The notes below the pieces were generated by a model. That model saw only the letters and a program-made list of their open reading frames with translations, did not search any database and was not told the origin of the DNA. From Nemertoderma westbladi (taxonomy: Eukaryota > Animalia > Xenacoelomorpha), in NCBI GenBank assembly GCA_032718475.1, contig JAUCBJ010006711.1, positions 124,001 to 188,000 on the forward strand: a stretch of DNA of 64,000 nt, in the 5' to 3' direction. This document shows positions 42,791-61,370 of this stretch, piece after piece. Positions within the stretch are counted from its first letter, which is position 1; each line of letters begins with the position of its first letter. The translations under genes were made by a program, and so were the position numbers.

Positions 42791-44444
42791 TGATAAACAA
42801 CCGCGACCTCTATACTAACAGCAGAACTGTTGAACAGACCAATACCCGTTAATATCCTTCTGCCAACCTAATAAGTTCTCGTCTAACCAATAAGACACAA
42901 AGACTGCTCTACTGTTAAGTAAAGGGGCTCAGGAGCGTGATATTACTAAATTGTAAGGGTTGCTAAATACAAAACCGCTACTTACCGTTAGATGGCGCTA
43001 ATCTGCCGTCCGCTAATATATTTACTAATTTTACACAACTCCTGCAAAATCGCTTGTTCCTTTCTCTACCGATTGCTCAATAGAGAGCTAACTGTTCGAA
43101 TCTATGAGCCACGCAGGAATAACCAAAACAATAAACCCGAGTCGGCTCCCTAAGCTTACTTAAGACGAGTGCGAGAGGCCTTGCACTCAGAGTATTCTTA
43201 CGCCTAATTCTATCACTATTAAAGCACGCTATTACCTACGTCTTTTCTAATCGCGAATACTGGGGGTTCTCTAACGTAATGTGTGAATGCGAGAATATTT
43301 AAAATATCAAAAATGGTACAGTAATTGTCTCTCGTGGATAGTACCACTCTGGGTCTAAAATTGCCTGCAGCTGGCTTTAGGCCAGCAAATCACTAGCGTT
43401 TCGTGCGTACCGAATAGTGCGTTCTAGCTGATTGTCCGCTAATGCAAATAACCGCTCAGCGTGAATAGTTTACAGTACTCTAATTATTACTTTAGCTACT
43501 CTCCGCTATGCTGCGTACTAATTCTTAATTTTACTAATCAATTACAGTCACAAATATTTAACAGCGTACTAATTACTAAGAGTTCCAGAATACGTAATTC
43601 TAATTTATCACGCAACAGGTTTCGCTAGTAATAGCCTAAATTGCCGTATTACTTTGACCTAATCAGTAACTAATTGTTGTAACTAAGAAATAGAAATCAA
43701 TCAAAGAGAAAAGAGCGCCTACCTAAACATTCACAATCATAGGCACACTTCAGTAACACACCAATCAGCGTCAGCAATCACAGTTCGCAATTATGCAGTT
43801 AACTACTGTATAGCCCACAATTATGCGACTCACTATTCGTACTACACGCTCAACGTTCGAAACGTTGTGATACGTGCAGGCCTCTCCCGGGTACATATAG
43901 GACTCCTAACTAACCTGATTCCCGCCCCCCTAATACTAAATAGAGACGAAACCTGGATCATCAGCCCCCTAATTACCGTACCGGCGATTGGTCTGCGTAC
44001 CACAGCGTTAACTTCCCGACCGCAACGGTGACCCCACGCCAGCGTTGCTCGCTTTGAATCCTCCGCTCTCCCTTAGTCGCCCAACCCCCCGATGTGCCCA
44101 CCGCCCGCTGGCGCCTTAGCCCTCCATTACGCTAATAGCTACCGTAGCGGCGCATGCAAATCACAAAGTCTGACAGTCTCAGAAATCCCTTAGGATTATT
44201 GCGCAGGAAAGAATCACATAGAACCATTAATCAAAAGTAGAAATCATAGTTCAGTTGTAATTAGCAGTAATCGAAGGAATTAATTGAGAAACACAAGCAA
44301 GAGTAATCGCACTAGCAAATCATTTCAAGAAATTAATCAAATTGCAAAAATACTCTAAAATCCGTCAAAATTGAATAGAGACAGCTCAGCAAGTACAACA
44401 GCAGTGAAGGTTGAATCGATCGATAGGCTCTACCGGCACACCGC

Positions 44445-44510
44445 CAATTTATAGGTGATCCGGATGGGATGATGCAATAGGGTGACTCAATCGCTCTCCT
44501 ATTGGCTCTC
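44445..44510 (-). promoter_or_regulatory. Putative LTR promoter (CCAAT + TATA box)
   Basis: Minus strand GCCAATAGG (~44500) followed about 50 bp later by CCTATAAAT (44455-44447). Confidence 0.4.
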
Positions 44511-44866
44511 CAGTCCATGCTAGCATTAGACCAACCTGGAAGCAGTTAATCCAATAAGGAGGCCGGATTGTAGCCCTATTGCTCAAATTATTACCATATA
44601 TGGTAATGGTTCACGTCTCTGGCTGCTGAATGGCCAGGACGGCGTCCCTATGCTAGCCCTATCAAACTAATATCAGCAAGCACAAAATCCAGGGTCCGAA
44701 TAAACTCGCTACCCTGGAACTATCTACATATATCCTAATACAAAATTACGTAGGTAGGGCTACATACTATACAAAATGGATGGTTTCAAATATATGGGCG
44801 TTTTGATTTCCCTACCTAAATACCACTGCGTTATTATGCCTTATCTAAAATATCATGCTGCACAAT

Positions 44867-44950
44867 GGACTAATATTACGTACAGTATAACGGACTAATA
44901 TTGCATACTGCATAACGGACTAATATTACATACTGCATGATGACTAATAA
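44867..44950. repeat. 25-bp tandem repeat (x3.4) in the putative U3
   Basis: GGACTAATATT(A/G)C(G/A)TAC(A/T)G(T/C)ATAAC repeated. Confidence 0.8.
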
Positions 44951-45749
44951 TATGGATACAGCGCCATATACCGTAACACCGCTCCAAGGGAAATCATACA
45001 ATGTTTCCCTCCAATTGTAGAAGAGTATAAGGTGATGTATACAAAACAAAATAAATTTCTTCCAACCAATCTAAATACTTGATACTATAGGTCCTACTAT
45101 TTACAAATATTGCTATAGATATTGCATAATGAATTACATACAAATTAAATTTACAAAATATTGTCTCTCTCACTGTTTAACGATTATTACATACAAATTA
45201 AATTTACAAAATATTGTTTCTCTTTCGTTCTACTACATAATGATTACTACATACAAATCAAATATAAAATTTTGCTAGGGTAAGTGAAAGGAGTAAGCCA
45301 AACCCGCAGGTTTGTCTCCCCAATCACTTCCTTCGCCTCTCTCATAATATAAATTCCAAATAGCTCAACTAGTGTATATGAGTCTAGTCGAAAATTTCCA
45401 AATGCTACAATATACATCAGAGCGACGATGATGTATATATCTAGAGTCTGTCGCCCTGTGCTATAATGTATTATCGACCCGCTCCTGGGTTCTTTGGGCT
45501 CGCTCCTCTCTTCCGCCCCCTTCCCAGATACACTAATCTACCTCCAGTCGACTCCGTTGACTGCGTCCGTGAGGCGTCACTCCCCGGAACCGGCGACGAT
45601 GTTCCCTGAGCCCCGACAGATTCCCGGCTCGTGCTTCTTCCTCGGCCTCGTCCCAATTGTCGTGCTCCTGTGGTCGCTTCTGCCAACTCTTCCTTATGCA
45701 GTTGCACTCGCGCCTTCTCCGACGCTCCCTGCGCCTTGCGCTGCAACCT

Positions 45750-48700
45750 CTATGCTTCTATAATAGAGTGATAGTGATCGTCCTTGACTTGACGCTTGTC
45801 TTGGACCCCTCCTCCTGGTTCTTTCCGCGAGCCTTGAGCTCCAGCGGTCGTCGCTGTGGTCGCTGCGATCCTTTGTTCCTGTATCCTCTCAGCGGTCAAT
45901 GAACCCACTGGCACATGAGTCAACAAGAATTCGTTGCGGTATTGTATAGCCGCCATCCTCCAATCACCTCGCGCGCGTACCACTTTTCTAGTCTCCGTAA
46001 ATACACCCTTCGTGATGCGATCGCAAATAGCAACGAAGTTCCATGTGTACTTATTGTCCATGTTCAATTGTCTGAAGTACTCTCGAACTACGATAACTCC
46101 AGTGTTTTGTGGAAGGTCTTGAGCAGTTAGGATGAGCTCCTGATATTGTGGTAGCGATTGTAGATATGGCTCGTACGCAACATGCGATGGGTCTACCGCC
46201 CAAAACCCATATCCCGCTTTAAATGGTAACCAACGCATCTGCGCTTGAATATGGTAATCCGCCACACTCTCCCACTTGTCTAACATCTCCCGAAGTAGGT
46301 TAGCGCTATGGTTTTGAAAGGAATCATCTCGCAGCTGACATCTCGCGCTACGATGTCCCTTTACCCCACAATATCCACATTGAGAAATGAAGACGGTGCA
46401 CGTGTGAAACGAATGGTCGGTCTCATTACACCAACGACAGACTTTATGTGCCGCCTCCACTACCGCGTCGCACGACTTTAGATTGTGCCTTGTGCTGCCG
46501 CACAACTTGCACCTACGCGCTTGTGGAAACCAGGCCCTCTCGTATATGAGGTCTCCAATCGGTTTCGCACTTCCTTCCTTCCCAATGTCTAATACGATGT
46601 CGTCCTCTCCAGTCAACGGTTGTCGATCCGGAACAAAGTAAACATCCTCGCCCTTGTCCTCTATCTCCAATATTTCCTCCCGCGTTCGTTTCGGATATGT
46701 CTTCTCCACCGGAAGATCTACTCCGAACACCTCTACTAACGTTTCCGGCCAGCCCTCCTTAACAGGTCTATCAGCCTCCGAGTGGAAGGGAGTACCAAAC
46801 CCGCGGGTTTGATTCCCGAACCACTTCTCCAAAGCTTCTGGCGTCGGATATTCCATCGACGGTCGGTCTCCCAAATCTCCGATGTTCTGTCGATATACTC
46901 CTTCGAATATCGCTAATCCTCTCCTAATCATCGACGTATTCTCTAACGATTGGTTGAAGAACGGGGTTAAGAAACGCTTCATCACGTCGGATTGGATTCC
47001 CCCTTTCGAGCGAACGTATTGATCTCCTCCGAATACCAATGGATGACGCTTCAAAACTCGCGCAACGATATCCGCTAATAAACAAGTCACCGTGTTCGAC
47101 TCAAGCACCAAATAATATTGTAGCGACGCACGGGGTGGCGCGCAAATGTTCCAATACACTAACGCTTGCCGCTTGAAGTGGGATTTGAACTCCGCTCCCG
47201 GTGGCGTGTTGTATTCGCCATACGCCTCCTCATACTTCTTTTGCGTCTTTAACTTAAAGTCCCAATTATACAACAAGTGTGCTATAAAGCCCATACCAGT
47301 CTTGGCAGAGTTGGGATACTCCCTATAAATTCCAATATCCTGTGCCCATAGCAACAATAGCTTGGTGTCGACAAACGGTCTCGGCAATCTATCTTCCAGA
47401 TCAGTCATGGCGTTGAAGTCGCTCTCCAAATCGCTCTGGACTCCCGATCCCACCTTGACGTAATCTTGGTTGAGAATAGCCTCTCTAACTTTCTTTGGTA
47501 ACATCCTGGCGTCGATACGCTCCGCTCCGTGCATACCTCCTCGCCTGCATACCTCCAAAATCTGTTCCCTAGGATCCTTCCCCTTCCGATATTGTGTCGT
47601 TATGATGGGCTCCGGTCTCTCTCGATCCGCCCTCACACGCATAAACACATGAGTCACACCATCGGCCGCACGAATTTGAATACACTTGCTGGTCAAACAT
47701 TCCTGATGGGACCCTCCTTCATTGTCGTAGAACATCACCCTCCAATCCTGCAGCGATTCCTCCGTCTTCCTCCACTGACGCTGAATCTCGTCTGATGGGG
47801 TCCACATGCGCTCGATAGCCTTGTGGTCATCATATCGGGTATAAGAACCCTTCCTCCTCAGCCACGTCTGGTCTACCTCCTCGTCGTCTGGGAATGTAGC
47901 CACCGCGACCCATACCTTGATGTACTTATCCAACCATCCGAATAGCTTACTCTCCTTCCCCGGAGCTCCAATCTTATCCAACGTGTCATAATCTGTGATC
48001 TGCATTGGGACATCACGCAAGAACTTCGCGCATAAAACTTCCCGTAGACAGTCAACGTTCCAATGGTCCGCCATTCTTACCATCGGCAAGAATCGTATCG
48101 CTTCTCGCGACTCCGGATGATCTACTAATATCGCAGGTTCGGTGCCGTCGGAATAATACACCGGTCCGGGTTGAGATACGACCTGTGGAACAAATCCGGT
48201 CACTCTCCTCGTCTCCTCTTGATGTCTATCCGCGGTCTTATTATACTCCGCTATCCTGTTCTCAAATAACTCTTTCGCCTTCGCCGCTCGCTCCTCCTGC
48301 CGCAACGCGTCTATGTCGTCCTGATGCTCAGGCGTGAGGCTTCTCACTCGGTGAGGTGAAGTAAACGTAGTCCAGGGACTCGAGAGCTCCAAACCCGCGG
48401 GTTTGGTACCCGAGTCCCGCGCCGCTTCGCGCCACGCCTCTAGATCCTTGTAGGCTCGGTACAGCGAAATGGCCGCTGCCGTCTCTATCAAACTGGGTGT
48501 CGAACAGGGTTTAATCTCCGTATACGGATCTAATGTCGTAACGGTCGGCGTAATGGGTCTCGGAGGTCGCTTTCCGCTGAAGTCGATACTGATCGTCGGG
48601 TTGCTCATCGGGTAACCTCCCTCGTTGTATCTAAGGAATTGGTGAGCTGGACATCGCGTTAATATCGGTTCCGGATGTTGCTCGTCTAGTCGGTCGGGAA

Positions 48701-49178
48701 TCGCCACGTCCTGTTTATTCATGCATTCACCACACTTGTAGAAGAGCTTGTATACGCTGAAGACTTTCGGCGTCTCCTGATCCTCGCCTCGAGTCCTCCG
48801 ATACAGATGCATTCCGTCGAACTGGTCTCGGACTGCAGGTAGAGGCTCCTCATGTCGTAAATACATATTCATATGGTATAGTCGTGCGATTTCCTCGTCC
48901 GGATCTGCGCTAATGTCGCACACGTCCAAAGCGAAGTCGTAGGGATACCGCGTGCGATACTCTCTCCGCAAGACTTCCATCCGGTCCCCCAACGCTCTCA
49001 TTCTTTCTCTCCGTAATTCTTTATCATAACTTGGTTTGTACTTCCCGTTCAGCTCCATCACGGACCGCCCATGGTAGTAAACGTTAGAGTCTTTACATCC
49101 TGGTCGCGCGAATGGTAGCTCCGCCTCCTCTCTGGCAGTAAATCCTCTGCGCGGTTGCGCTCTAATATCCCTCTCCAT
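45750..49178 (-). CDS. BEL-B extra ORF: DEDDy (WRN/EXD/Mut-7-like) 3'-5' exonuclease + three CCHC zinc knuckles, 1142 aa
   Basis: ExoI MFYDNE; ExoII LPKKVREAILNQDYVKVGSGVQSD; FVDT; GMGFIAHLL; ExoIII-like W..PP...LQYYLVLE. Knuckles CKLCGSTRHNLKSC, CRWCNETDHSFHTC, CGYCGVKGHRSARC. ATG start, uninterrupted. Confidence 0.8.
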   Translation of the reverse strand: MERDIRAQPRRGFTAREEAELPFARPGCKDSNVYYHGRSVMELNGKYKPSYDKELRRERMRALGDRMEVLRREYRTRYPYDFALDVCDISADPDEEIARLYHMNMYLRHEEPLPAVRDQFDGMHLYRRTRGEDQETPKVFSVYKLFYKCGECMNKQDVAIPDRLDEQHPEPILTRCPAHQFLRYNEGGYPMSNPTISIDFSGKRPPRPITPTVTTLDPYTEIKPCSTPSLIETAAAISLYRAYKDLEAWREAARDSGTKPAGLELSSPWTTFTSPHRVRSLTPEHQDDIDALRQEERAAKAKELFENRIAEYNKTADRHQEETRRVTGFVPQVVSQPGPVYYSDGTEPAILVDHPESREAIRFLPMVRMADHWNVDCLREVLCAKFLRDVPMQITDYDTLDKIGAPGKESKLFGWLDKYIKVWVAVATFPDDEEVDQTWLRRKGSYTRYDDHKAIERMWTPSDEIQRQWRKTEESLQDWRVMFYDNEGGSHQECLTSKCIQIRAADGVTHVFMRVRADRERPEPIITTQYRKGKDPREQILEVCRRGGMHGAERIDARMLPKKVREAILNQDYVKVGSGVQSDLESDFNAMTDLEDRLPRPFVDTKLLLLWAQDIGIYREYPNSAKTGMGFIAHLLYNWDFKLKTQKKYEEAYGEYNTPPGAEFKSHFKRQALVYWNICAPPRASLQYYLVLESNTVTCLLADIVARVLKRHPLVFGGDQYVRSKGGIQSDVMKRFLTPFFNQSLENTSMIRRGLAIFEGVYRQNIGDLGDRPSMEYPTPEALEKWFGNQTRGFGTPFHSEADRPVKEGWPETLVEVFGVDLPVEKTYPKRTREEILEIEDKGEDVYFVPDRQPLTGEDDIVLDIGKEGSAKPIGDLIYERAWFPQARRCKLCGSTRHNLKSCDAVVEAAHKVCRWCNETDHSFHTCTVFISQCGYCGVKGHRSARCQLRDDSFQNHSANLLREMLDKWESVADYHIQAQMRWLPFKAGYGFWAVDPSHVAYEPYLQSLPQYQELILTAQDLPQNTGVIVVREYFRQLNMDNKYTWNFVAICDRITKGVFTETRKVVRARGDWRMAAIQYRNEFLLTHVPVGSLTAERIQEQRIAATTATTAGAQGSRKEPGGGVQDKRQVKDDHYHSIIEA

Positions 49179-49964
49179 TATGCCTCGCGTATATACATAT
49201 ATATATATCCCAATAAGTGCCGTTACGTAACCAACTACACTGTGGGTAAATCAGTTAGATGTCGCCGAAGGACAGACCTCCCGAACCCCCCCCCCCCCCC
49301 CCCCCCCCGCCTTCCAGCAGTTCAGGTTCGACTCTCTAGATCCCGTCTCTTCCTAACTAACTATCCTCTAACCTATTCCCATGCATAGCGCAAAAACTTT
49401 GGAGATAACCAACCTTTGGAGATGGCCGTGACCAACTCACTTTTTGATGCCCAAACTACTCCCATTACTCGTACTAAACTACAGTAGTTAGAAAGGACCA
49501 TAGCCACAATACTCGACTATACCAAACCCACAGGTTTGATAATCGAACATCACACATCCTGCAAACTACTGAGTGGGGTCCATGTACGCCTCTGGTGCTA
49601 CTAACCTTTAGCACCTTAGTTGCACTGTTGGCACCAATCTGTGGAAGTTGCTAAACTCAATTTACACTCCTACGTAATATAGCCGTCACCATGGTTTCTA
49701 AATGCTATTTTCCAGGCTTCACAACTTTTCAAATTACTGTTTATCTATAGACGAATTCTAAAACGCGTCTATACACAGCGTCTGGAATTGTCTTGGGTTC
49801 ACTTCTAATTTTTAAAATTTTGTAATTTTCCAAAAATTTTGAAAATAAAATTTTGTTTTGATACCCACCAGACAAAACTCAACGCAAATCACCACAACCC
49901 CGCTCCTATGCATTTCCTTGTATTTGCATACGAGGAATGCATACGATGTGAGTTGCGTCCAACA

Positions 49965-52900
49965 CTAACTCTGTTTTGAGACAGGAGACAAATTATAATC
50001 TCCCGTCTCGATACGTGTCTCCTCTAATAACACAATATCTTGGACCGGTCGGTCCAAGGTGTGTAAACCATTAGTTTTACACTTTTTTGGGTGCGGACAC
50101 TTGCACCTAATTTTCACAGTGACTGTGCGCACTATGTTTTGCACGTCTGGGTGTGTGTGCAAGATCACTCCAGTCTCCCAATACTTTCTCTTGACAATGG
50201 GTTCGGTTATCAATACGTAGTCTCCCTTTTGGAGACTCCGAACCGTTTTGTACCACTTTGTTCTGGTGGATATGGTGGGAAGATAGTATTCCCGCCAATA
50301 TTCCCAGAATTTGTACGCGACTAATTGAGTCATTTTCCAGCTCTTACGACTATATAGGTCGGCACTAATGGGTTCTGATGCCGGCACAAGAAATGCTGGA
50401 CTCTGCATTAGCAAATGATTCGGCGTTAATGCAACACCGTCTGGCAACATAGCTATCGGCCTCGAGTTTAGGGTATGCTCGATTTCAATGAAAGCTGTGA
50501 CCAGTTCGTCGTCGGTAAGTTGTTTGTTCACAGGCAATGTTTTGGCAATGGCCTGTTTTACAGAGCGAACCAAACGCTCCCAAATTCCTCCTCTCCAAGG
50601 ACTTTCTGGAGTATTAAATCTCCATTCTACTCGTTGCGGCAAAAGTGCTGCAGAAATTTCCTTATTCTGTGCTGCTTTATGAGCCGCGTTCAACTCGCTA
50701 TTCCCTCCGACAAAGTTTGTACCCTTGTCAGAGTAGAACGCCTTTACTAGTCCTCTCCTGGCCATAAATCTCTTTAAGGCCAGGAGCAGAGATTTGGTCG
50801 ACATGTCTGCCACACGCTCGATATGTATGGCTCTACTCGCCATACATGTCAGTAGCAGACCCCATCGCTTGTGGGTCAGCCGTCCACTCTTTGCTTCAAT
50901 CGGACCAAAACAGTCCACCCCTGTATTCGTAAAGGGTGGGTCATATGCCTGCACTCTCGCTTCCGGGAGTTCAGCCATCTCCTGTTCCAATACTCTGGCG
51001 TTCACCCTCTTGCAAACCAGACAGGCGTCATACATAGTGCCGACTGCCCTGCTTGGCTGCAATAGAATGAATCGCTGTCTCGCTGCCGACAGACAGTGTA
51101 ACTTTCCCGCGTGATGCAACCTCTTATGTATATCCCATAGAATCGCTCTTTGCAATTCTATCGGGTAACTAGGGATTATCACTGGGAACCGAAACTGTGA
51201 GTTTATGTCGACAGTCTGGATTCTCGATCTATGACAAATCAAACCCTTATGGATTAATGGACTCCATTTTCTAAGGGGTTTATAGAGAACTGGTCGATGA
51301 GCCGATAATAGATGGAATTCTTTCGGGAAGGCACACATTTGATAATGTTTCAAATGCTTTAATTCCGCTTGATCAATCTCATCCTCTGTCAGAGGTTGTT
51401 TCAATTTCCGAATTCGCTCACTATTGGTGCTCAATGGTTCTCTCAAATGTTTTGAATGTTTTAAACAAAGGTACGAAACGTATCGGCTTAACCACGCAGG
51501 TCTTTTACAAATTGTCAGCCAAGAGGCAGACGAATTTAGTAATTTGTCATAAATACTGCATGACTCTAATGCCAGCGACGGTTGTCCGCTAACTAATGGA
51601 CGTTTCGAATCCAAACCCGCAGGTTTGGAAACCAAAGGATCCATTGTGTCGGTCATTTTCTGTCCGTCACTTACCAATTGTGACTCCGGTTTAGTCTGTA
51701 AGGGCGGTTTTATGTCATAACTTACCCTTCCTGACCTAATAGTCACGTAAGTCTGTTGGTCTGACAGGTCTCCGGGCCGCTCCAATGACTCTTCAGGCTG
51801 CTCCAATGACTCTTCAGGCCGCTCCAATGACTTAAGTTTGGCTTTAGACTTCGACTTAGAGACTTTCTCCACTTTGACTTCTGCATCTTCAGGCATCGGA
51901 TTGGTCACTATCTTTAGTCGCTCTGGCCAATGTTCCTGTGTCCTCGTTAGAAAATCAGGTCCATGCAACCAAAACTCCTGCGACTCTTCCTGACAGAATT
52001 CCGCCGGCATTGCACCTCTCGAAGTTATGTCGGCCGGGTTCAACACTCCCGGACAATGTCTCCATTGTTCCTTCGTCGAAAAGTCAACGATCTGAGCGCG
52101 TCTATTGGCCACAAATGTCTTTAGTGCAATATTGTCGGCCGCAATGTATACTAACACCAAGGATGCGTCCGTCCAATAGAATAAGGTCAATGTCGTGTCT
52201 AACTCCTCAGTTATTTGCTTACTTACCTCGACCGAAACTACAGCCGCCTGTAACTCTGCACGAGGGACAGTCATGTATTTGACCGGCATTGTCTTTGATC
52301 TAGAAGTCACAAAAGCCGTCTCAAACTTGTCCTGACTTACCTCTCGGCGAAGGTAGGCTACCATACCAAAACCGGTGTCACTTGCGTCACTAAATAGGTG
52401 GAGCTCTAAATCAGCTGGGAATACCAGCTGATTCGGAAGGTAGGAACGGGGTACATCTATATTTTTCAATAGATGCAACTCGGCTTCCCACTCCCTCCAC
52501 TGCTTTGCATGTATAGGAGATATTGGTTCGTCCCACTCTAAGTCGGACAACCAAATTTTCCTCATGCACGCTCGTGCCTGTAATATAACCGGACTGATAA
52601 AGTTCATCGGGTCAAATAGTCTACTCAATGTCGATAAGCAAATCCTCTTAGTCAAAACTTTGTCTGGGCTACTGGGCTCAAATCTAACTCTTACCTGGAA
52701 CTTATCTGAGTTCGGGTTCCAAGCGAGTCCCAGTACTCGCGCCATGGGAATTGGTTCTACCCCCAATTCTATGTCTCCGCTCCCGCGATCCTTTACCGGG
52801 AACGACTCTAATAGGGCCTCCGAGTTCGTAGTGAACTTGGTCAGAGGAAATCCCCCTGTAGCCAAGCACTCCTGCAGGCCGTGAGCCACTTCTATGGCTT

Positions 52901-55900
52901 GTTCCGCTGTGTCCTTGGACACCAATCCGTCGTCCATATAGAAGTTTCTCAATATAGACTCGATTACTTCTACTGGATACTTACCAATCTGGGCTGTTGC
53001 CGTTTTCTTTAAAACGAACAGCGTGCCATTCGGACTATCGCGGGCGCCAAATATCCTAACGTACATCTGGTATGTAACCACTGGGCCGGATAAGTCTTCA
53101 TTCTCAAACCAGAGAAATCGAAGGCTATCCTGGTCTGCCTTACAGGCTCTTACCTGGTGGAACATCGCCTCGATGTCACAAGTAAATGCGAATCGCCGCT
53201 GTCTAAAACGCAACAGTATTCCGATCAAATAGTTATTCAGGTTGGGACCATCCATCAACTCTGAATTCAGGGACATACCTCTATAGACTGCTGCGCAGTC
53301 GTTGACTACTCGGACTTTGTCTGGCTTGTCAGGGTGAGTCACATAGTGGTGTGGAAGGTAATAAGTCTGGTCTGTCACCAAGTCAGGGTCCTCTACCTTC
53401 CCAGCAAATCCCTTGGCGAAATAGTTGTTGATCTGGGCGCAATACTTCTCCCTAATGTCCGGATTCTTCAACAACCGAGCCCTTACTCCGTTCAATCTTT
53501 TCAAGGCTAAGTTGTAGTTGTTCTCCAACTTAGGTGGTTGTCGACGCCACAACATTCCAACTTCAAAATGTCCAGTCGGTAGTAGACGTATGGTATCTTC
53601 CATCATCTCCAACGACCGTTTCTCATCAGTAGACATGGCTAGGTCATATCCACCGGGTTCCATTGCGTCCCTATCCAGCCATTCGACGGTTCTAGCTCCT
53701 GTCTCGAGGTCCTGGCGTATCAATTCCTTTTGTAATTCCTCCTCACTGTATTGGAAAATGTCTAGGTCTCGAGATTTAGCCACTTGACCCTCCACTATGT
53801 CTGTATAAGTCAAAACGTTAGTCAAATAGGTAGCGTGGGCCGCTGAACCAGACCCACGGGTCTGATAACAGTAGTCCTCGGGTTCACTATCTGTCCGGTC
53901 ATTATGAAGTGGTTCCGACAACCTAACATTATCGGGAATCAACTCCTCATCTGACTCGCTAAAGTCACTATAGTGGTCAATACAGGTTCTCCTAAACTCG
54001 TCTATGTCTGGTGGTTTTACTAACGGTGGTTGAGCTATAGGCTGTAATTCGTCGTATCTATTCATTGGCTTGTCGCCACCTGTAAACTCATAAGACATGG
54101 GTACTCGTGTATACCAACCTAGTATGGTCCTATGGGCATGTGGTCCATTGACATGCGGCTCAGCTGGTCTCGTTTCCCATATCTGGTGTGCGATCAGCTG
54201 TTCTGCACCAATCAACATAGAAACATTCCTATAACCTACCTGGTGTCTGGGTATCCTGAGCTTGTCAAAATACTCCTGTGCTATGGGACTCATCGGCGGC
54301 ACCTTACCTAACTGCCTGCCGAATCCCTTCATAGCTAGACACTTAAATCCGTCCAATGGCAAAGCTTTCCGTTCTTGTCGAGTATGCTGGTCTCTCGGAA
54401 GTAGGGAATCTAGTTCCACCGAAATTCTGTGTCCCTTGAGGTCACCTACCCCATGCATAGACTTCAACTCTATTTGGATCTCCTCGGCGTCCTGGAAGCT
54501 AGAAACAGCTCTCGCCACTTCCTCGTCGATATACGATAATGTGGACGCAGTGTCCAACATCACATATATTCGCTTCGATCCCTTATCGCTGGTGAGTTTC
54601 ACCGGAATCACGCTAAATATTTCCGACGTGGCCGATGATAAATACGTCCGCGCGCTGGTCGATGAACTATCCGCGGTGAAACCTTGGCAGGTCACTTCTC
54701 TCGCGCTCGACTCGCCATCCTCGTCCGACGAACCTGGTTGGTAACCATCGTCCTGGATGCCAGTGTACGTATTCCTCCTTATCGATACGGGTTCTTTGCT
54801 CCCCTTCCTTTGAGGATTTCGCTGTAAGTAACGGTCCGTTGGGGTATGGAAATCCGCATGTAGCAACTTGTGATGTAGTCTGCCGCATTCCATGCATCCG
54901 TCCTTGCTGTTCGGGCACTGCCGCCGTACATGTCCTGGCGCAAGACAAGCCCAACAGGTGTCCAACGTCCGCACTTGAACTCTTCTCTGTTCTGAATTTA
55001 ATTCCTTGAACCGTCTGCAACTATCTAACTTATGGTCGTCAGATCTTACCTCCTTTAGTAAACAGTATTGGCAACCTACAAATCCATCCGGCAACTCCTG
55101 TTGCTTTAACCTAGGTCTATCTAACCGCTCACCTGACCATACTCGCGAGTCTGATCTAAAGGCTGGGGTATTCGAATTATATCTGTCTACTGAGTTATAA
55201 GTCACAGTGGTCCTGTCATCGTCAAAACTTACCATAGACTTACCGGTAACAGGTTTAGACTCTCTCATATTCTCTTCTGAGAAGTTTGATTTCATCTCTG
55301 CTACTGCGTCTGTGGCTATCATGTCATGAATATGCTGAAGTGTCAATACTTTACCTTGGCCCTCCAACTTATTCTCTAATTTGCGCCATTTCTGTCGGTA
55401 ACGCATGTTTAGACGTCTTATTACGCTCTTTAAAACTTCGGCGTGATCACCATGATGAGGTAGATTCACCGTCCTCAAGATGTCCAATGCGTTCGAAATA
55501 GCGTTCGCTAAATTCAACAGCTCAAACGGAGTTGTAATCCTTCCGCCCTTACCCAAGTCTTCTACTATCGACTGCGCCATCTTGGTTTTATTCCCGTAGA
55601 TGTCGCTAAGCGTCTTCATTGCTAACTCGAATGCTCTTTCGTTGCCGACGAAATTATCAGCAATGGCTCTAGGTTCTCGATGGAGCATCTGAAGCAAATA
55701 GTTGAACTTCTCGTTGGGAGTAAAGGTGCTGTTGGTTAGCTGCTCGTCGACATAGGTTTTAAAGGTCCTCCAGTGCTTGTGGTTGCCCATAAACTTCTGG
55801 GGTTGTTGCGTCGGCAGTCCTTGCCTAGCAGCAAACTTACCTATGTCCCTAAGGGTTGCGTCGTTCCGGGTTAACAAATGGTTTAGTTCCGCAGGGTTGT

Positions 55901-57668
55901 TAAGTCTGGTCCTTTCCCGGTGGTTCCAACTTACCTGCTCCGCGTTGGTCCTTCTTTCCTTATAGTTTCGGGACTTCTGACGTCTCATTTCTTCCTCTTC
56001 ATCGCTTGACTCGGTGTCAGTCCTTAGCGCTCGCGATGATTTGCGCGCCGAGGCCCTGACCCAAGCATCCTGAATAAATCTTTCTGCCGAATTTTCGAAA
56101 TTGGGATTATGGATATTCGGGACAGGCGTCCTTACCTGAGGTCTATGTGGTATAGTTTCCTCCGATATGCGTACTCGTTGACTAGGCTGGACTTTATCTA
56201 ACTCAGGCCTGCTGGGATTAGAATTACTTCTTACCTGGGCTGCTTCCTTTAACCGTAGGTTGCTAAGCATGTCCGTTATAGGTTGGATGTGCGGCGATAT
56301 AGCTTGCGCTAAACTAGCACTTAACTCATCCCTCGTAATAAATTCCTGGCTAGGGTTCTGTTGTATAGTCGGCTCTATCTGAGTAATCCGCTGTCTCTCA
56401 TATGATCCCTCTTCCGGTTTAACCCGGAAGTTCTCCGTCGAACTGGGTCGGCGCTCCGTCCGCGTATTCCAAACCCTCGGGTTCGGTTCGCCAAGTACTC
56501 GTTCCGTCGGAGTTTCTTCTCTAAATTCTCCGTTCTCGCGTTCGATATATAGTGGTGCGGTGTTCCGATGACGTAGATCCTGAGCGATGGGTGAAACACT
56601 AATACCAACTGGCGTGCGATATGTAGAGAATGGTTTAGCGATCCGTGTACTCGTAATAGCTGGACCGAGTATAGGAATTCTGGTCGTCGTTGACTCGCGT
56701 ATAGTCGGAGTTCTCGCTTCCTGTTCGGCCTTCTGCAGTGCGAACAGTTCTCGCAACTCTGTCCCCACACTCGCCCCACATTCTTCGAGCATTCGCATCC
56801 CCTTCTCGGCGATTTCGTTCGCCTTCCTAGTCCGTTCTTCGCTCTCTAAACTTAATCTCGCACTTTCCAACTGCGCCAGTTTACGCTCTTCTTCTTCCCT
56901 CGCTCGTCTCGCTGCGCTCTCTTCTTCTACTCGCGACCTTTCTTCATACAATGCGCGTCTTCTTTTCTCGATCTCGAGTTCGCGTTCCTTGCGTCCGCGT
57001 TCGAGTTGAAGCTCGCGCTCCTTCTGTTCACGATCGAGTTTCTTGCGCTCGCGTTCGGCTTGGAGTTCGCGTTTCTTCGCTTCCTGTTCGCATTCAAGTT
57101 GGAGTTCGCGTTCTCTCTGTTCGCGTTCGAGTTGGAGTTCGCGTTTCTTCGCTTCCCGCTCGCATTCAAGTTGGAGTTCGCGTTCTCTCTGTTCGCGTTC
57201 GAGTTCCTCGCGCTCGCGCTCGGCTTGGAGTTCGCGTTCCCTTTGCTCGCGTTCCGCTCGCTCGCGCTTACTTATCTCTTCCAACTCTCGTAACTCTGCG
57301 TCCAACTTACGTGTGCGCTCCCGTTCCCGCTCGGCTTCCTTCCGTGCTTCCTGTGCACGCAAAACTTCCGCCTGCTGTTCGTCTAGTCGGCGTCTTCTCT
57401 CCTCCGCCGAGTTGTGAGAAACAAGGGATCTAGCACATATTACCTTACCTCGCGCGTGACTAACCTGGGAATCGCCGCTGTCTCTAGATGCATCGTCGGT
57501 TGGAGTCAACGTCCTCTGTTGGATGTTCTCCGTCGTCGGTAGCACCTGACCTGGTACCACCACTCCATTCTGCATCAGCCAGCTAGTAACTTCCCTCTGA
57601 TACCGGCGCTCCTCTTTATCCTGCGTCTCTTCTCGCTCCACTAAGTCTCTCAACTCTGCGTCACTCAC
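49965..57668 (-). CDS. BEL-B Gag-Pol polyprotein (main part, 2567 aa)
   Basis: Coiled coil; PQKFMGNHKHWRTF gag; Cys arrays CWACLAPGHVRRQC and CMECGRLHHKLLH; LDTAS protease; YLPHH, DIEAMFHQV, FYMDDG RT; LHLFSDAS and NPADITSRG RNase H; HHAG..CLVC, GVDCFGP, YSDKGTNF, GIWERLVRSVK integrase. Confidence 0.97.
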   Translation of the reverse strand: MSDAELRDLVEREETQDKEERRYQREVTSWLMQNGVVVPGQVLPTTENIQQRTLTPTDDASRDSGDSQVSHARGKVICARSLVSHNSAEERRRRLDEQQAEVLRAQEARKEAERERERTRKLDAELRELEEISKRERAEREQRERELQAEREREELEREQRERELQLECEREAKKRELQLEREQRERELQLECEQEAKKRELQAERERKKLDREQKERELQLERGRKERELEIEKRRRALYEERSRVEEESAARRAREEEERKLAQLESARLSLESEERTRKANEIAEKGMRMLEECGASVGTELRELFALQKAEQEARTPTIRESTTTRIPILGPAITSTRIAKPFSTYRTPVGISVSPIAQDLRHRNTAPLYIERENGEFREETPTERVLGEPNPRVWNTRTERRPSSTENFRVKPEEGSYERQRITQIEPTIQQNPSQEFITRDELSASLAQAISPHIQPITDMLSNLRLKEAAQVRSNSNPSRPELDKVQPSQRVRISEETIPHRPQVRTPVPNIHNPNFENSAERFIQDAWVRASARKSSRALRTDTESSDEEEEMRRQKSRNYKERRTNAEQVSWNHRERTRLNNPAELNHLLTRNDATLRDIGKFAARQGLPTQQPQKFMGNHKHWRTFKTYVDEQLTNSTFTPNEKFNYLLQMLHREPRAIADNFVGNERAFELAMKTLSDIYGNKTKMAQSIVEDLGKGGRITTPFELLNLANAISNALDILRTVNLPHHGDHAEVLKSVIRRLNMRYRQKWRKLENKLEGQGKVLTLQHIHDMIATDAVAEMKSNFSEENMRESKPVTGKSMVSFDDDRTTVTYNSVDRYNSNTPAFRSDSRVWSGERLDRPRLKQQELPDGFVGCQYCLLKEVRSDDHKLDSCRRFKELNSEQRRVQVRTLDTCWACLAPGHVRRQCPNSKDGCMECGRLHHKLLHADFHTPTDRYLQRNPQRKGSKEPVSIRRNTYTGIQDDGYQPGSSDEDGESSAREVTCQGFTADSSSTSARTYLSSATSEIFSVIPVKLTSDKGSKRIYVMLDTASTLSYIDEEVARAVSSFQDAEEIQIELKSMHGVGDLKGHRISVELDSLLPRDQHTRQERKALPLDGFKCLAMKGFGRQLGKVPPMSPIAQEYFDKLRIPRHQVGYRNVSMLIGAEQLIAHQIWETRPAEPHVNGPHAHRTILGWYTRVPMSYEFTGGDKPMNRYDELQPIAQPPLVKPPDIDEFRRTCIDHYSDFSESDEELIPDNVRLSEPLHNDRTDSEPEDYCYQTRGSGSAAHATYLTNVLTYTDIVEGQVAKSRDLDIFQYSEEELQKELIRQDLETGARTVEWLDRDAMEPGGYDLAMSTDEKRSLEMMEDTIRLLPTGHFEVGMLWRRQPPKLENNYNLALKRLNGVRARLLKNPDIREKYCAQINNYFAKGFAGKVEDPDLVTDQTYYLPHHYVTHPDKPDKVRVVNDCAAVYRGMSLNSELMDGPNLNNYLIGILLRFRQRRFAFTCDIEAMFHQVRACKADQDSLRFLWFENEDLSGPVVTYQMYVRIFGARDSPNGTLFVLKKTATAQIGKYPVEVIESILRNFYMDDGLVSKDTAEQAIEVAHGLQECLATGGFPLTKFTTNSEALLESFPVKDRGSGDIELGVEPIPMARVLGLAWNPNSDKFQVRVRFEPSSPDKVLTKRICLSTLSRLFDPMNFISPVILQARACMRKIWLSDLEWDEPISPIHAKQWREWEAELHLLKNIDVPRSYLPNQLVFPADLELHLFSDASDTGFGMVAYLRREVSQDKFETAFVTSRSKTMPVKYMTVPRAELQAAVVSVEVSKQITEELDTTLTLFYWTDASLVLVYIAADNIALKTFVANRRAQIVDFSTKEQWRHCPGVLNPADITSRGAMPAEFCQEESQEFWLHGPDFLTRTQEHWPERLKIVTNPMPEDAEVKVEKVSKSKSKAKLKSLERPEESLEQPEESLERPGDLSDQQTYVTIRSGRVSYDIKPPLQTKPESQLVSDGQKMTDTMDPLVSKPAGLDSKRPLVSGQPSLALESCSIYDKLLNSSASWLTICKRPAWLSRYVSYLCLKHSKHLREPLSTNSERIRKLKQPLTEDEIDQAELKHLKHYQMCAFPKEFHLLSAHRPVLYKPLRKWSPLIHKGLICHRSRIQTVDINSQFRFPVIIPSYPIELQRAILWDIHKRLHHAGKLHCLSAARQRFILLQPSRAVGTMYDACLVCKRVNARVLEQEMAELPEARVQAYDPPFTNTGVDCFGPIEAKSGRLTHKRWGLLLTCMASRAIHIERVADMSTKSLLLALKRFMARRGLVKAFYSDKGTNFVGGNSELNAAHKAAQNKEISAALLPQRVEWRFNTPESPWRGGIWERLVRSVKQAIAKTLPVNKQLTDDELVTAFIEIEHTLNSRPIAMLPDGVALTPNHLLMQSPAFLVPASEPISADLYSRKSWKMTQLVAYKFWEYWREYYLPTISTRTKWYKTVRSLQKGDYVLITEPIVKRKYWETGVILHTHPDVQNIVRTVTVKIRCKCPHPKKCKTNGLHTLDRPVQDIVLLEETRIETGDYNLSPVSKQS

Positions 57669-58414
57669 CTGAGTCGCCTGCGCTTGTGATGCCCATAGCA
57701 GCCAGTTCTCTGTCCTAACTCGTCGGATCGCTCCGATAACTCGCGGTGCTCCAACAAGGCTGCTAAAACCCTGTCGTAAATCCTCGTCGCCACGTCGCTC
57801 GACTGAGACTCTACTGCCTTCTTCGCTAGGACTGCAAGCTCCTCCGTCTGCTTGAATAACGCTGAGTTATATCCTCTTCTAATCTCTGCTAACTCTACCC
57901 TCCCGATGTTGGCTGAGTCGGCCAACATTTTTCTTACCTTGTCCGCCGTCCGAGTTATATGTCCGGCATGCGCGCGAAGTTTCTTCTTTATCGCGATATC
58001 AAGTTCTCTATCACTTACCTGACTTACACTCGGTGGACTTGAAGGATTATTTCGGGAACTACGGGTACTCCTTACAGCCGTTGGGACCACGGCACTTACC
58101 ATACCCACAGGTCTGGAAACCGGGCTCCGGGCTCTCGCTTCTGCTACACTATCCTCCCTATCACTCACCTCTGTCCGGGCTGCCGTACAGTCCTTCCTTA
58201 CAGTAGCGGTAGGGGATCCTAATACTATTACTTGAGGTTGCTGTTCTTCCTCACTAGTCACTGTCTCGTCCTCCTGTTCACTTACGTCAGCGTCACTCGC
58301 TGCGTCGTCATAGTCGGCATTGTCGTCAACAGTAATATTGACGCTATCGTCAGTCGGCGGTCCAGCCGCCGTCTCGTAGCTGTCCTCTAGTGCCTCCTTG
58401 TCTGAGACACTCAT
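57665..58414 (-). CDS. N-terminal Gag segment of BEL-B (249 aa), out of frame with the main ORF
   Basis: ATG-initiated acidic/helical ORF overlapping the GTG-called start of the 2567-aa ORF by 4 nt; the main ORF is in the -1 frame. Confidence 0.7.
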   Translation of the reverse strand: MSVSDKEALEDSYETAAGPPTDDSVNITVDDNADYDDAASDADVSEQEDETVTSEEEQQPQVIVLGSPTATVRKDCTAARTEVSDREDSVAEARARSPVSRPVGMVSAVVPTAVRSTRSSRNNPSSPPSVSQVSDRELDIAIKKKLRAHAGHITRTADKVRKMLADSANIGRVELAEIRRGYNSALFKQTEELAVLAKKAVESQSSDVATRIYDRVLAALLEHRELSERSDELGQRTGCYGHHKRRRLR

Positions 58415-59705
58415 AGTCTAAATAATGTTTGCCTTCCGGCAAAATATCTCGCAAAGGTTCGAGATATGATTATAATTTAACCGAAATACGGTCAAATTAT
58501 TTGTCAAATAATCAGTTGGTCCAAAATGTCAAAATAAATTCGCAATGCAATATTGTGAATTTAATGGGGTATATAGTTATAGCAAATACTAGCACAATAT
58601 TTAAACAAAAATATTATTATATAGCTACTATATAGTATTAAATACCGGTATAGCACAAAATAACTCTGAATCTAATACAAAATATTCAAAATATACTTGC
58701 CACCCGAATATTTCTAATTTTATATATATATAGCTCTAATCAACGTAATTTTAATTTCAAATATTATATGTATCCACTAACGCGTGGCTACATCTTCGGG
58801 TTGCGACTCTCTCTAACTCTCTCTCTAACTTGAGCGATTCAAAACCATGGTCGGCTAAACCTAAATATCCTAACTAATAAATTGAGTTCAGCTTCGCAGT
58901 TAAACAACCGATAATTTTTTACTGCTTCCACAAACACACTGGTGCCAACAGAACAACTAACCTTGTTTGCTGTGAGATTCCACGTCCGCGTCCAAAGATT
59001 CAGGCCCTTCGCTGATTGCAAACCGAACCCGCAGACCCACACGAACCCCAAACTCAGAAGTTCCGTCTTGCCATGTATCTCCAGATGGTATAAAATAACT
59101 AAGCGGTTACCTAACATACCGGTACAAAACTCTAGAATTTTACAAAATAATTTTGACCGAAACTGAATTCTCGCAAACCTAGCTAATAATTTTCAAAAAA
59201 CTTACTAATTACAGTTTGCCCTAAGGCCTAAGGAACTGCTGTATTCGCAATTAGCAAAAACGCACTACCGTACATTCACTGTATGCAGTACAGTAAGTAA
59301 AACAGTACACCAACCTAACAGCCTAATGATACTGTGTGTGGTACGGCAAAACAAATGTCCCTTCTACCGTCCGCAGTAACAACAATCAGCCTAATGTACT
59401 ACTGTACTATCGTACGCAGCCAGTGAATACAGTAATCTAAACTAACAGCCTAAAAGAATATACTCAATGTTCTACCGTACGCTAGCCTATAGCCTACAGC
59501 AGACGATCACGTGCTCCAATTTATTGCCTAATACTATGATATTACTATCAGCCTAAGAATACTCTATTGACCGCTGCAAGCAACAGCCAATAACGCGTAT
59601 TACTGATACGAAGTATCAGTAAATCTAAATCTTCACGGCCTAAGAATATACTCTATGTCCTACTGTACGTGGTAGGCCTACAGCAGACAATAATGCGCGT
59701 ATTAC

Positions 59706-61370
59706 TGATAAACAACCACGACCTCTATACTAACAGCAGAACTGTTGAACAGACCAATACCCGTTAATATCCTTCTGCCAACCTAATAAGTTCTCGTCTA
59801 ACCAATAAGACACAAAGACTGCTCTACTGTTAAGTAAAGGGGCTCAGGAGCGTGATATTACTAAATTGTAAGGGTTGCTAAATACAAAACCGCTACTTAC
59901 CGTTAGATGGCGCTAATCTGCCGTCCGCTAATATATTTACTAATTTTACACAACTCCTGCAAAATCGCTTGTTCCTTTCTCTACCGATTGCTCAATAGAG
60001 AGCTAACTGTTCGAATCTATGAGCCACACAGGAATAACCAAAACAATAAACCCGAGTCGGCTCCCTAAGCTTACTTAAGACGAGTGCGAGAGGCCTTGCA
60101 CTCAGAGTATTCTTACGCCTAATTCTATCACTATTAAAGCACGCTATTACCTACGTCTTTTCTAATCGCGAATACTGGGGGTTCTCTAACGTAATGTGTG
60201 AATGCGAGAATATTTAAAATATCAAAAATGGTACAGTAATTGTCTCTCGTGGATAGTACCACTCTGGGTCTAAAATTGCCTGCAGCTGGCTTTAGGCCAG
60301 CAAATCACTAGCGTTTCGTGCGTACCGAATAGTGCGTTCTAGCTGATTGTCCGCTAATGCAAATAACCGCTCAGCGTGAATAGTTTACAGTACTCTAATT
60401 ATTACTTTAGCTACTCTCCGCTATGCTGCGTACTAATTCTTAATTTTACTAATCAATTACAGTCACAAATATTTAACAGCGTACTAATTACTAAGAGTTC
60501 CAGAATACGTGATTCTAATTTATCACGCAACAGGTTTCGCTAGTAATAGCCTAAATTGCCGTATTACTTTGACCTAATCAGTAACTAATTGTTGTAACTA
60601 AGAAATAGAAATCAATCAAAGAGAAAAGAGCGCCTACCTAAACATTCACAATCATAGGCACACTTCAGTAACACACCAATCAGCGTCAGCAATCACAGTT
60701 CGCAATTATGCAGTTAACTACTGTATAGCCCACAATTATGCGACTCACTATTCGTACTACACGCTCAACGTTCGAAACGTTGTGATACGTGCAGGCCTCT
60801 CCCGGGTACATATAGGACTCCTAACTAACCTGATTCCCGCCCCCCTAATACTAAATAGAGACGAAACCTGGATCATCAGCCCCCTAATTACCGTACCGGC
60901 GATTGGTCTGCGTACCACAGCGTTAACTTCCCGACCGCAACGGTGACCCCACGCCAGCGTTGCTCGCTTTGAATCCTCCGCTCTCCCTTAGTCGCCCAAC
61001 CCCCCGATGTGCCCACCGCCCGCTGGCGCCTTAGCCCTCCATTACGCTAATAGCTACCGTAGCGGCGCATGCAAATCACAAAGTCTGACAGTCTCAGAAA
61101 TCCCTTAGGATTATTGCGCAGGAAAGAATCACATAGAACCATTAATCAAAAGTAGAAATCATAGTTCAGTTGTAATTAGCAGTAATCGAAGGAATTAATT
61201 GAGAAACACAAGCAAGAGTAATCGCACTAGCAAATCATTTCAAGAAATTAATCAAATTGCAAAAATACTCTAAAATCCGTCAAAATTGAATAGAGACAGC
61301 TCAGCAAGTACAACAGCAGTGAAGGTTGAATCGATCGATAGGCTCTACCGGCACACCGCCAATTTATAGG
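59706..61370 (-). repeat. 5' LTR of BEL-B, truncated at its outer end
   Basis: Direct repeat of 42791-44455 (offset 16915); outer end lacks the TG/CA terminus and a TSD. Confidence 0.9.

Follow-up and report, generated by a model that had tools for sequence, protein, structure and literature searches.

What does an 18-nt quasi-palindrome do when it recurs along the internal region of an LTR retrotransposon, and which protein would read it? The question was raised by BEL-B, an element of Nemertoderma westbladi located in the window analysed here, a 64,000-nt stretch of the forward strand (assembly GCA_032718475.1, contig JAUCBJ010006711.1, positions 124,001-188,000). BEL-B is surrounded by satellite DNA and is at least 18.6 kb long, with an internal region of 15,250 nt. 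By the order of its predicted gag-pol domains (DUF1759, CCHC, the RT region, Peptidase_A17 in the RNase H region, integrase and DUF5641), it belongs to the BEL/Pao LTR retrotransposons. The gag-pol gene lies on the minus strand (49965-58417) and is divided in this copy into two overlapping frames (57665-58417 and 49965-57866). Its Gag-Pol of ~2,880 aa exceeds the median of 1,882 aa in 40 homologues, and its Gag has its own CCHC array. Against 235 BEL-type polyproteins, the best identity was 42%, and searches found no polyprotein relative above this level. The terminal direct repeats (42791-44455 and 59706-61370) are 1665 nt each and 99.8% alike. BEL/Pao LTRs are expected to have TG...CA ends, with a PBS and a PPT; the ends of these repeats are non-canonical, and each is probably a truncated LTR. 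An ARAGORN search returned nothing, and an Rfam search over 42700-61500 returned a single chance-level match (E 4) away from every hairpin described below.

All eight 18-mers reported in the initial annotation were found in place, and a ninth, at 55137, had been overlooked. In the internal region, eight sites differed from a perfect palindrome at no more than four positions and nine sites at no more than five, compared with a chance expectation of 0.06-1.3. Specifically, Markov controls of orders 1, 3 and 5, with 200 simulations per order, gave means of 0.06-0.31 (maximum 3) and 0.46-1.3 (maximum 5) at the two thresholds, respectively. The nine copies were used to train a covariance model, which recovered all of them with 34-49 bits, the next non-overlapping match scoring 13 bits. 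The motif was absent from BEL-A and the satellite, as noted earlier, and also from the terminal repeats. The spacing had been given as 1.1-2.6 kb; once the ninth copy was counted, it narrowed to 1133-2237 nt and was far more even than random (CV 0.23, p 0.00016).

All nine copies share one orientation, on the minus strand. In the order of transcription, the first (58083-58132, core 58099-58116) lies at the start of gag and was the weakest in wider context, with a core-pair P of 0.03-0.07 and a core not predicted to form in a context of 200-400 nt. The next lies in the Gag N-terminal region (56453-56502, core 56469-56486) and contains one G·U pair. The ninth copy (55121-55170, core 55137-55154) falls in the interval between the capsid-like domain and the Gag knuckles and shows a compensatory C-G to U-A change of the closing pair, and the copy in the protease-RT linker (53832-53881, core 53848-53865) shows a compensatory A-U to G-C change. 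Another copy occupies the RNase H-integrase linker (51595-51644, core 51611-51628). Between pol and the extra ORF, a copy with loop UGUG (49506-49555, core 49522-49539) has a G·U-rich lower stem, and its fold scored -17.3 on the sense strand vs -9.7 on the antisense strand. Two copies lie inside the extra ORF, one upstream of the exonuclease (48373-48422, core 48389-48406), with a 2x4 internal loop and a 10-bp lower stem at 48375-48418, and one between the exonuclease and the knuckles (46779-46828, core 46795-46812), with loop CGCG. The last copy, with loop UGCG, lies in the 3' non-coding region (45282-45331, core 45298-45315) and has ~45 nt, the whole unit, in common with the 46795 copy at 82% identity. 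Seven of the nine sites are coding, covering all three codon phases, and two are non-coding. The location of the gag-pol copies in linkers was borne out: the main ORF has four sites, three of them in stretches that can hardly be aligned with homologues (identity 0-0.03) and one in a weakly conserved stretch (0.12). Most units occupy linkers or non-coding gaps, positions that the proteins can accommodate. A cluster of 3'-arm-like half-sites, noted earlier near 59020-59055, does exist in the 5' non-coding region (59020-59065, minus strand), but its best candidate, at 59048, had a core P of 0.0 and no covariance-model score, and the cluster was rejected as a tenth hairpin.

The copies follow a common pattern consisting of a 7-bp upper stem (range 7-8 bp), a YGYG tetraloop whose two Gs are invariant across copies, an asymmetric internal loop, often 2x4, with extra bases on the 3' strand, and a lower stem. 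This unit was recognized from sequence pattern and covariation, and the fold itself is predicted. Among the 63 core pairs, 55 were Watson-Crick, five G·U, none A·C and three other. When the lower stems were added, the mRNA strand had 15 G·U against one A·C (p 0.0005). All 12 uncompensated transitions among the copies fell on the side suiting a sense-strand hairpin, whereas family-wide changes showed no such bias. Mirror positions of the 18-mer also varied unequally (positions 1/18, 5 vs 0; 8/11, 4 vs 0; 9/10, 0 vs 4). Methyl-CpG decay was rejected as the origin of the loop variants because the changes were confined to one strand.

Pairing extended beyond the core. The lower stem was 67% paired over six positions while its sequence was free. 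In the fixed 2x4 register, which was picked on the sense strand and is complete in about six of the nine copies, 82% of positions were paired with 14 double changes, and none of 500 shuffles scored as high. When 15-nt flanks were swapped among copies, the own pairs were better in all but 100 of 362,880 permutations (p ~0.0003); the antisense strand gave an equally strong result (8/362,880), and the flank swap therefore shows pairing, not strand. Taken together, RNA stem-loops are likely a better description of the 18-mers than DNA palindromes. Of the two options offered in the initial annotation, the RNA hairpin was supported, as was the general proposal of a nucleic-acid-level signal. The other option, in which a dimeric protein binds DNA at a dyad, was not supported, given the 12 transitions and the presence of a lower stem at each copy.

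In the 48389 hairpin, the one site compared, family variants spared or preserved the pairs. None of 16 synonymous-type sites varied inside vs 10 of 44 outside (p 0.033), with the omission of 48406, 48407 and 48408, which exceeded 2% only in run X5; all three belong to this hairpin, in its terminal pair and its internal loop, and including 48408 abolishes significance. The sole variant in this hairpin changes a G·U to an A-U pair. A diverged contig of 1164 nt, whose alignment was restricted to 48372-48440, retained the core without a listed change. Among the joint ends listed, 5 of 30 were no more than 40 nt away from a core and on its preserving side, compared with 0.7 expected. The loop letter at 56477, in the 56469 hairpin, differed in every contig covering this position. 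When 132 proteins were scanned for peptide imprints of the motif, there were 59 matches vs 43 after shuffling; these were mostly generic 5-mers and were not accepted as a sign of conservation.

The extra ORF (45750-49250, minus strand, first ATG at 49178) occupies the env position of BEL-B. It is predicted to encode an EXD2/Nibbler-like, DEDDy-type 3'-5' exonuclease with a DnaQ-like fold (~46930-47850), followed by three CCHC knuckles (~46340-46510) and a conserved C-terminal segment. Profile searches matched the protein to EXD2 (E 1.4e-6) and to Lin28 and nucleocapsid knuckles. The structural model was weak (pLDDT 51; 32 for the single-sequence fold). With this low-confidence model, NrnC and Nibbler aligned with Z 10.1-9.6 and rmsd 3.9-4.5 over 168-190 residues, the Nibbler EXO domain with Z 10.0 and rmsd 3.9 over 182 residues, and Egl with Z 8.4 and rmsd 5.7 over 195 residues. 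Foldseek gave zero matches with E below 0.001, and Pfam was blank for this ORF. The D-x-E and D catalytic motifs are present, but the third motif reads Y-x3-E instead of Y-x3-D; among the 10 rows aligned, Y-x3-E occurred in this ORF and three others and Y-x3-D in four. Because of this E in place of D, the nuclease activity of the accessory protein is uncertain. HMMER detected eight homologues among 1.84 billion representatives, and a word-index search for homologues detected none. In predicted fold and in motifs, the nuclease domain resembles EXD2, Nibbler, WRN-exo, EXD1 and trypanosome RNase D, the last of which also fuses an exonuclease to a CCHC knuckle; unlike these relatives, the BEL-B protein has a retrotransposon env position, three knuckles, its own C-terminal segment and the E in the third motif. 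This nuclease-knuckle gene was previously unannotated. At the level of titles and abstract openings, with subscription papers mostly outside the coverage, the literature contained no description of such a hairpin array or accessory gene in BEL/Pao. An exonuclease has reportedly been noted in nematode BEL elements.

The neighbouring element BEL-A carries a different hairpin family, on the plus strand. Three tandem copies (37886, 37946 and 37985; 37886-37999) have a 4-bp stem, loop UGGUA and then AC. Hairpins with different stems occur at 39976-39990 (loop UACAA), 41790-41804 (loop UGGUU) and, at the RNase H end, 42663-42677 (loop UGGUA). The family combines a fixed loop with variable, fully covarying stems of 4-5 bp (29 of 30 cells paired, seven double changes), and its largest family of 5 was matched in one of 300 simulations. 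Two further hairpins of this type, at 62345-62359, detected once the pattern was already fixed, and at 63393-63407, outside the seed region, lie directly upstream of and within a second exonuclease-family ORF (62382-63998, plus strand), the latter right after the nuclease domain. This ORF is open at the window end, shows no knuckles before that point and matched a profile built without it (E 8.5e-15). It is probably the accessory gene of BEL-A, which would make 61371-64000 part of that element and would tie the BEL-A hairpin pattern to the second exonuclease ORF. The co-occurrence of a hairpin array with an exonuclease ORF thus concerns two elements in one window. The suggestion that the extra ORF is the partner of the motif gained plausibility from the zinc knuckles and from the BEL-A hairpins beside the second exonuclease ORF, while the link itself is one that we infer.

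Among 90 other BEL loci, which were redundant and mostly ended near pol, none showed a BEL-B array, a BEL-A array or the accessory ORF. The BEL-B covariance model gave eight weak matches there (best 18 bits) and no array. De novo hairpin scans, low-powered on loci of 6-8 kb, gave 3-4 for the controls, and two of the 90 loci reached 3; in the k-mer scan, the BEL-B gag-pol control was not above background. In viral contigs, 32 loci had a single exact match each to the BEL-B motif without any cluster, and no BEL loci were found.

Considering these results, we tentatively favour the reading that family-specific hairpins load the accessory protein of BEL-B along its long RNA and so protect it. The nine same-strand, evenly spaced repeats are predicted to form stem-loops in the BEL-B transcript and would serve as loading sites from which the exonuclease-zinc-knuckle protein coats the RNA, its knuckles possibly reading the exposed loop Gs. 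Once tethered, the nuclease might counteract small-RNA or decay marks of the host in its vicinity, or it might license RNA export and packaging; a limited reach would explain the even hairpin spacing. The hairpins probably spread by copying of whole units, judging from the 45298/46795 pair, and the hairpin code would differ from family to family, as the different BEL-A pattern suggests. A broader version, possible but doubtful, is that sequence-specific anti-silencing has an RNA-level counterpart in a lineage of large BEL elements, where a per-family hairpin code, repeated regularly along the coding sequence, and a cognate exonuclease-knuckle reader form orthogonal pairs that shield the transcript from small-RNA silencing or decay. 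Such tagging and protection of an element's own RNA would be undescribed for retrotransposons. Two adjoining families with different regular hairpins and a nuclease-knuckle gene allow a direct test, by means of short RNAs and isolated domains, of how animal LTR retrotransposons mark their RNA for survival and packaging and of any sequence-specific counter-defence that they may have. If the reading is true, RNA-level self-recognition joins transposon biology, a second code runs through protein linkers, and orthogonal RNA tag-reader pairs are on offer.

The main rival to an accessory reader, which we consider rather unlikely, casts the hairpins as dispersed packaging signals that the nucleocapsid knuckles of Gag would recognize and that would nucleate and compact an unusually long genomic RNA, the accessory gene being a separate trait of large elements. 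The structural evidence fits this equally well, the element and its Gag-Pol are large, and Gag bears a CCHC match and could be the reader. In RNA viruses, dispersed stem-loops with a common recognition motif on the genomic strand drive assembly, and their spacing matters, in the available part of the account (PMC6281560); such stem-loops also occur within coding sequence, in a genome of 30 kb (bioRxiv 2026.06.18.733228, available in part). BEL-B resembles the packaging signals of MS2, HBV, parechovirus and coronavirus in these respects, but the viral signals are described, in the parts available, as degenerate, whereas 18 nt are near-invariant and regularly spaced in BEL-B, an LTR retrotransposon for which the foremost candidate is a dedicated accessory reader. 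Moreover, Gag knuckles are general in BEL, yet none of the 90 other loci showed an array (shorter elements, with low power), and three or four sites would be common to an accessory mRNA, which would lower selectivity for the full-length RNA. Recruitment of a host RNA-binding protein, for example for Egl-BicD/dynein transport, export or stabilization, is improbable. In Egl signals, a bulge on the 3' strand separates two helices, each 6 bp or longer; the signals work in pairs, include one from a retrotransposon and are read with the help of a DEDD-fold domain, according to the available part of the source (PMC13186709). The two positions contacted by Egl are U-A pairs in such signals. The 7-8 bp upper stem and the extra 3'-strand bases of BEL-B recall them; its lower stem is 67% paired over six positions. 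On the same partial basis, Egl signals lack overt sequence conservation and have a host-protein reader, in contrast to the near-invariant top 18 nt here, and two neighbouring families in one host have different hairpins, the BEL-A stems being too short.

In complex retroviruses, Rev/RRE-type systems rely on a structured cis element and on an accessory protein, encoded by the retrovirus itself, that binds RNA; the RRE is one large structure within an intron, and its readers are not known to combine a nuclease with knuckles. BEL-B has nine small hairpins, and the accessory ORF itself contains some of them. A role in reverse transcription or dimerization, through inter-strand contacts, pause or template-switch sites, or single-stranded DNA structures, is quite improbable. 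Two RNA molecules could pair with each other through the self-complementary 18-mers, single-stranded DNA hairpins tolerate G·T as well, and even spacing would suit long-template synthesis. However, several loops are not self-complementary, near-identical sites would favour deletions through mis-switching, and the invariant loop Gs and the fixed BEL-A loop on variable stems would be left unexplained. A VANC-like anti-silencing system, in which a dimer encoded by the element or the host would bind the motif as double-stranded DNA, is very improbable. Dyad symmetry, strong sequence conservation, family specificity, the single orientation and the satellite surroundings would suit such a site, and VANC motifs are likewise co-oriented and family-specific, differ between related elements and act with an element-encoded accessory protein, in the part of the source available (PMC5735166). 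As described there, these motifs are dense, tandem, non-coding double-stranded DNA sites of DNA transposons, whereas the BEL-B sites are structured, single, mostly coding and bear RNA signatures, and BEL-A has one triple. The unequal mirror positions, the sequence-free lower stems and the fully covarying BEL-A stems also speak against a DNA site, and the accessory protein, whose profile and fold matches are exonucleases and knuckles, resembles RNA-acting proteins. The earlier analogy holds in its logic, in that a cis motif specific to the family would have a reader encoded by the element, whereas VANC/VANDAL membership is not supported. That the hairpins are functionless relics of small duplications surviving only in tolerant linkers would agree with their location and with the whole unit shared by two copies, but is largely refuted by the compensatory pairs, G·U bias, even spacing, few variants, the core retained in the diverged relative and the independent family in BEL-A.

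Additionally, a weak inverted match between 58934-58960 and 49616-49642 was marginal, with a score of 39.5 vs a shuffled maximum of 37.5.

All eight 18-nt quasi-palindromes that the initial annotation had assigned to BEL-B (45298, 46795, 48389, 49522, 51611, 53848, 56469 and 58099; first nucleotide of the core) were present, and a ninth copy was found at 55137. BEL-B, a BEL/Pao element with the Pfam domains DUF1759, Peptidase_A17, integrase and DUF5641, runs on the minus strand, and its closest polyprotein relatives show 42% identity. Within its 15,250-nt internal region, 8 sites had at most four mismatches from a perfect palindrome and 9 had at most five, compared with means of 0.06-0.31 and 0.46-1.3, respectively, in 200 Markov simulations per order, which bears out the expected excess over chance. 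A covariance model built from the nine sites scored them, by construction, at 34-49 bits and the next independent match at 13 bits. The inter-site gaps (1133-2237 nt, CV 0.23) were evener than random placement (p 0.00016), and the widest two cover the integrase and RT-RNase H. As previously claimed, coding DNA carries sites in all three phases (7 coding sites); three of the four main-ORF sites lie in stretches barely covered by 40 homologues, and the remaining one lies in a weakly conserved stretch. The nine-site array is real, is apparently under structural constraint and is part of a wider two-family pattern that includes BEL-A, the neighbouring plus-strand BEL element.

BEL-B is inserted in BEL-A, which sits in a 416-bp satellite. 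BEL-B is flanked by 1665-nt direct repeats, 99.8% alike (42791-44455 and 59706-61370), which on the minus strand open with a TATA-like box; their ends lack TG...CA, and these non-canonical repeats are probably truncated. No target-site duplication was recognised at the repeats, and the true outer end may lie near 44978. Beside the left repeat, inspection by eye found a PBS-like stretch (44454-44471) on the plus strand, which is opposite to gag-pol. The 5' non-coding region (58934-58960) and the pol-accessory gap (49616-49642) show a weak inverted match of 27-44 nt that was marginal against shuffles. BEL-A lacks most of its integrase at the insertion point, and its 5' part is duplicated together with flanking satellite (14501-21165 and 33469-40125; 98.7%).

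In the gag-pol sense, each BEL-B site comprises a 7-bp stem and a YGYG-type tetraloop. The 63 core pairs included 55 Watson-Crick, 5 G·U, no A·C and 3 other pairs, and two were compensatory. All 12 uncompensated transitions fell on the side preserving a G·U pair or loop G, a strand-side bias absent from family-wide changes. Mirror positions of the 18-mer varied unequally, which contradicts both a dyad DNA site and CpG decay because both predict symmetry; CpG decay was thus rejected as the source of the loop variants. The nucleic-acid-level signal proposed in the initial annotation was accordingly narrowed: a double-stranded DNA site is very unlikely, whereas an RNA hairpin is supported. Sequence beyond the 18-mer is mostly unrelated among copies, yet each copy's own flanks pair, and only 100 of 362,880 permutations of the 15-nt flanks equalled own-flank pairing. 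On the antisense strand 8 of 362,880 were as good, so this test shows pairing and not strand. Imposing one fixed structure that has a 2x4 internal loop gave 82% pairing and 14 double changes, more than in any of 500 shuffles. Taken by itself, the lower helix was 67% paired (10 G·U versus 1 A·C). In 200-400 nt of context, the core was predicted on the sense strand at 8 of 9 sites (P 0.61-1.0), on the antisense strand at five, and at 58099 on neither. The UGCG and CGCG loops would fall in the stable UNCG/YNMG class, and Gs exposed in loops are what the knuckles of nucleocapsid and Lin28 recognise. The BEL-B sites behave like a structure that forms in a single strand of mRNA sense; the repeats, their shared orientation, their spacing and their covariation were observed directly, and the RNA folds are predictions. 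No Rfam family matched the hairpins. The two 3'-most hairpins (45286-45330 and 46785-46827) have about 45 nt in common at 82%, which suggests copying of entire units.

Two sequencing runs supplied thousands of contigs that aligned to BEL-B. In the region of 48389, variants reached at least 2% in both runs in 17 rows at 15 positions, and the only one inside the 44-nt hairpin converts G·U to A-U. At 48389, the one site compared, synonymous-type positions varied at 0 of 16 inside the hairpin and at 10 of 44 beyond it (one-sided p 0.033), the direction that the initial annotation anticipated; three rows above 2% in run X5 only, at the terminal-pair position 48406 and the internal-loop positions 48407-48408, were omitted, and including the unpaired 48408 would abolish significance. 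For all positions, the values were 1/44 inside and 14/135 outside (p 0.08). A 1164-nt contig aligned over 48372-48440 only, with 11 differences, none in the core, as listed with differences near alignment ends omitted. For 15 joints shown of 104, 5/30 ends lay no more than 40 nt from a core, on its core-keeping side (0.7 expected), with this distance chosen post hoc. The odd loop letter at 56477 differed in every contig covering it.

BEL-A has a dispersed hairpin code of its own. A hairpin-family scan supplied three BEL-A seeds, a size reached in 3 of 200 simulations, and the pattern consists of a locus-specific 4-bp Watson-Crick stem, the loop UGGUA (or UGGUU, UACAA) and then AC. It matched on the plus strand at 37886, where three copies stand in tandem, at 39976, 41790 and 42663 and, beyond the seed region, at 62345 and 63393; there were no matches on the antisense strand or in BEL-B, and 6 in the 1.28 million nt of other BEL loci. 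At least one match in the held-out piece occurred in 14 (strict) or 34 (loose, a pattern defined after 63393 had been seen) of 3000 simulations, and two matches in none. Across six loci, 29/30 cells pair, with 7 double changes, and the stems covary fully. Under grouping by loop and 3' dinucleotide, a rule suggested by the BEL-A family itself, this family was the largest (5 sites), equalled in 1 of 300 simulations and in none of 90 BEL loci (maximum 3). BEL-A and BEL-B alike have one site before the accessory ORF and one after its nuclease domain. A broken look-alike of the BEL-A hairpin lies at 36456.

The accessory ORF of BEL-B (45750..49250, minus strand) contained no Pfam domains, and HMMER recovered 8 homologues among 1.84 billion representatives; common to them are a nuclease domain, a set of three CCHC knuckles and a segment at the C-terminus. 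Their profile matched EXD2 (E 1.4e-6) as well as Lin28 and nucleocapsid knuckles, and a low-confidence model (pLDDT 51) aligned to NrnC, Nibbler, RNase D, WRN-exo, Egl and Exd1 (Z 10.1-8.0). For one of the homologues, the lead from the Atlas was an exonuclease-CCHC cluster (0.86). E replaces D in the third catalytic motif of the predicted exonuclease. The homologues (P0121-P0128) form an unannotated family of exonuclease and triple-knuckle proteins, and P0121 has the knuckle module twice. Upstream of the ORF, the minus strand has a stretch of over 20 Gs (about 49280-49305), after which an acceptor-like sequence occurs near 49240. A second exonuclease-family ORF (62382-63998, plus strand; E 8.5e-15) probably represents the accessory gene of BEL-A itself; it starts downstream of a peptide at 61371 that resembles the end of a pol gene, and a tandem array of 32-bp units (61529-61935) also precedes it.

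As to the reader of the hairpins and their purpose, we infer, at somewhat below an even chance, that the accessory protein would load onto the hairpins of its own family and, once loaded, might protect or license the element RNA over a limited reach. This is favoured because both exonuclease-bearing elements in the window have arrays, because the arrays differ by family and because the protein has RNA-type knuckles. That the arrays and their cognate readers amount to a code by which each element protects itself at the RNA level is possible but doubtful. Packaging signals read by Gag would fit the hairpin structure equally well, and the layout of dispersed packaging signals (PMC6281560; bioRxiv 10.64898/2026.06.18.733228) resembles that of the BEL-B array; we consider this Gag-read alternative rather unlikely. 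It is improbable that the hairpins serve host transport or export factors, and a role in reverse transcription or dimer formation is distinctly so; that such paired, evenly spaced repeats are a neutral relic is scarcely credible.

Egl signals (PMC13186709) have a bulged two-helix shape that the BEL-B hairpins may share but, unlike them, lack sequence conservation. The suggested analogy with VANC/VANDAL (PMC5735166) holds for the family-specific logic, shared with both arrays; VANC motifs are mainly non-coding and tandem-dense, and the BEL-B array, mostly coding and made of single sites, differs in both features. A literature search of titles and abstracts, in which subscription journals are poorly represented, found no description of such hairpin arrays or accessory gene in BEL/Pao.

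The 90 BEL loci compared (638 kb, redundant, mostly 3-10 kb) contained no BEL-B motif clusters and no accessory ORF. Other hairpin families in them are only weakly excluded: by k-mers the 8.5-kb BEL-B control was not above background, and short controls reached 3-4 in the hairpin scan versus 3 in two loci. Ten BEL RT-matching loci (L113-L122) occurred in bacterial MAG assemblies and are probably eukaryotic contamination.
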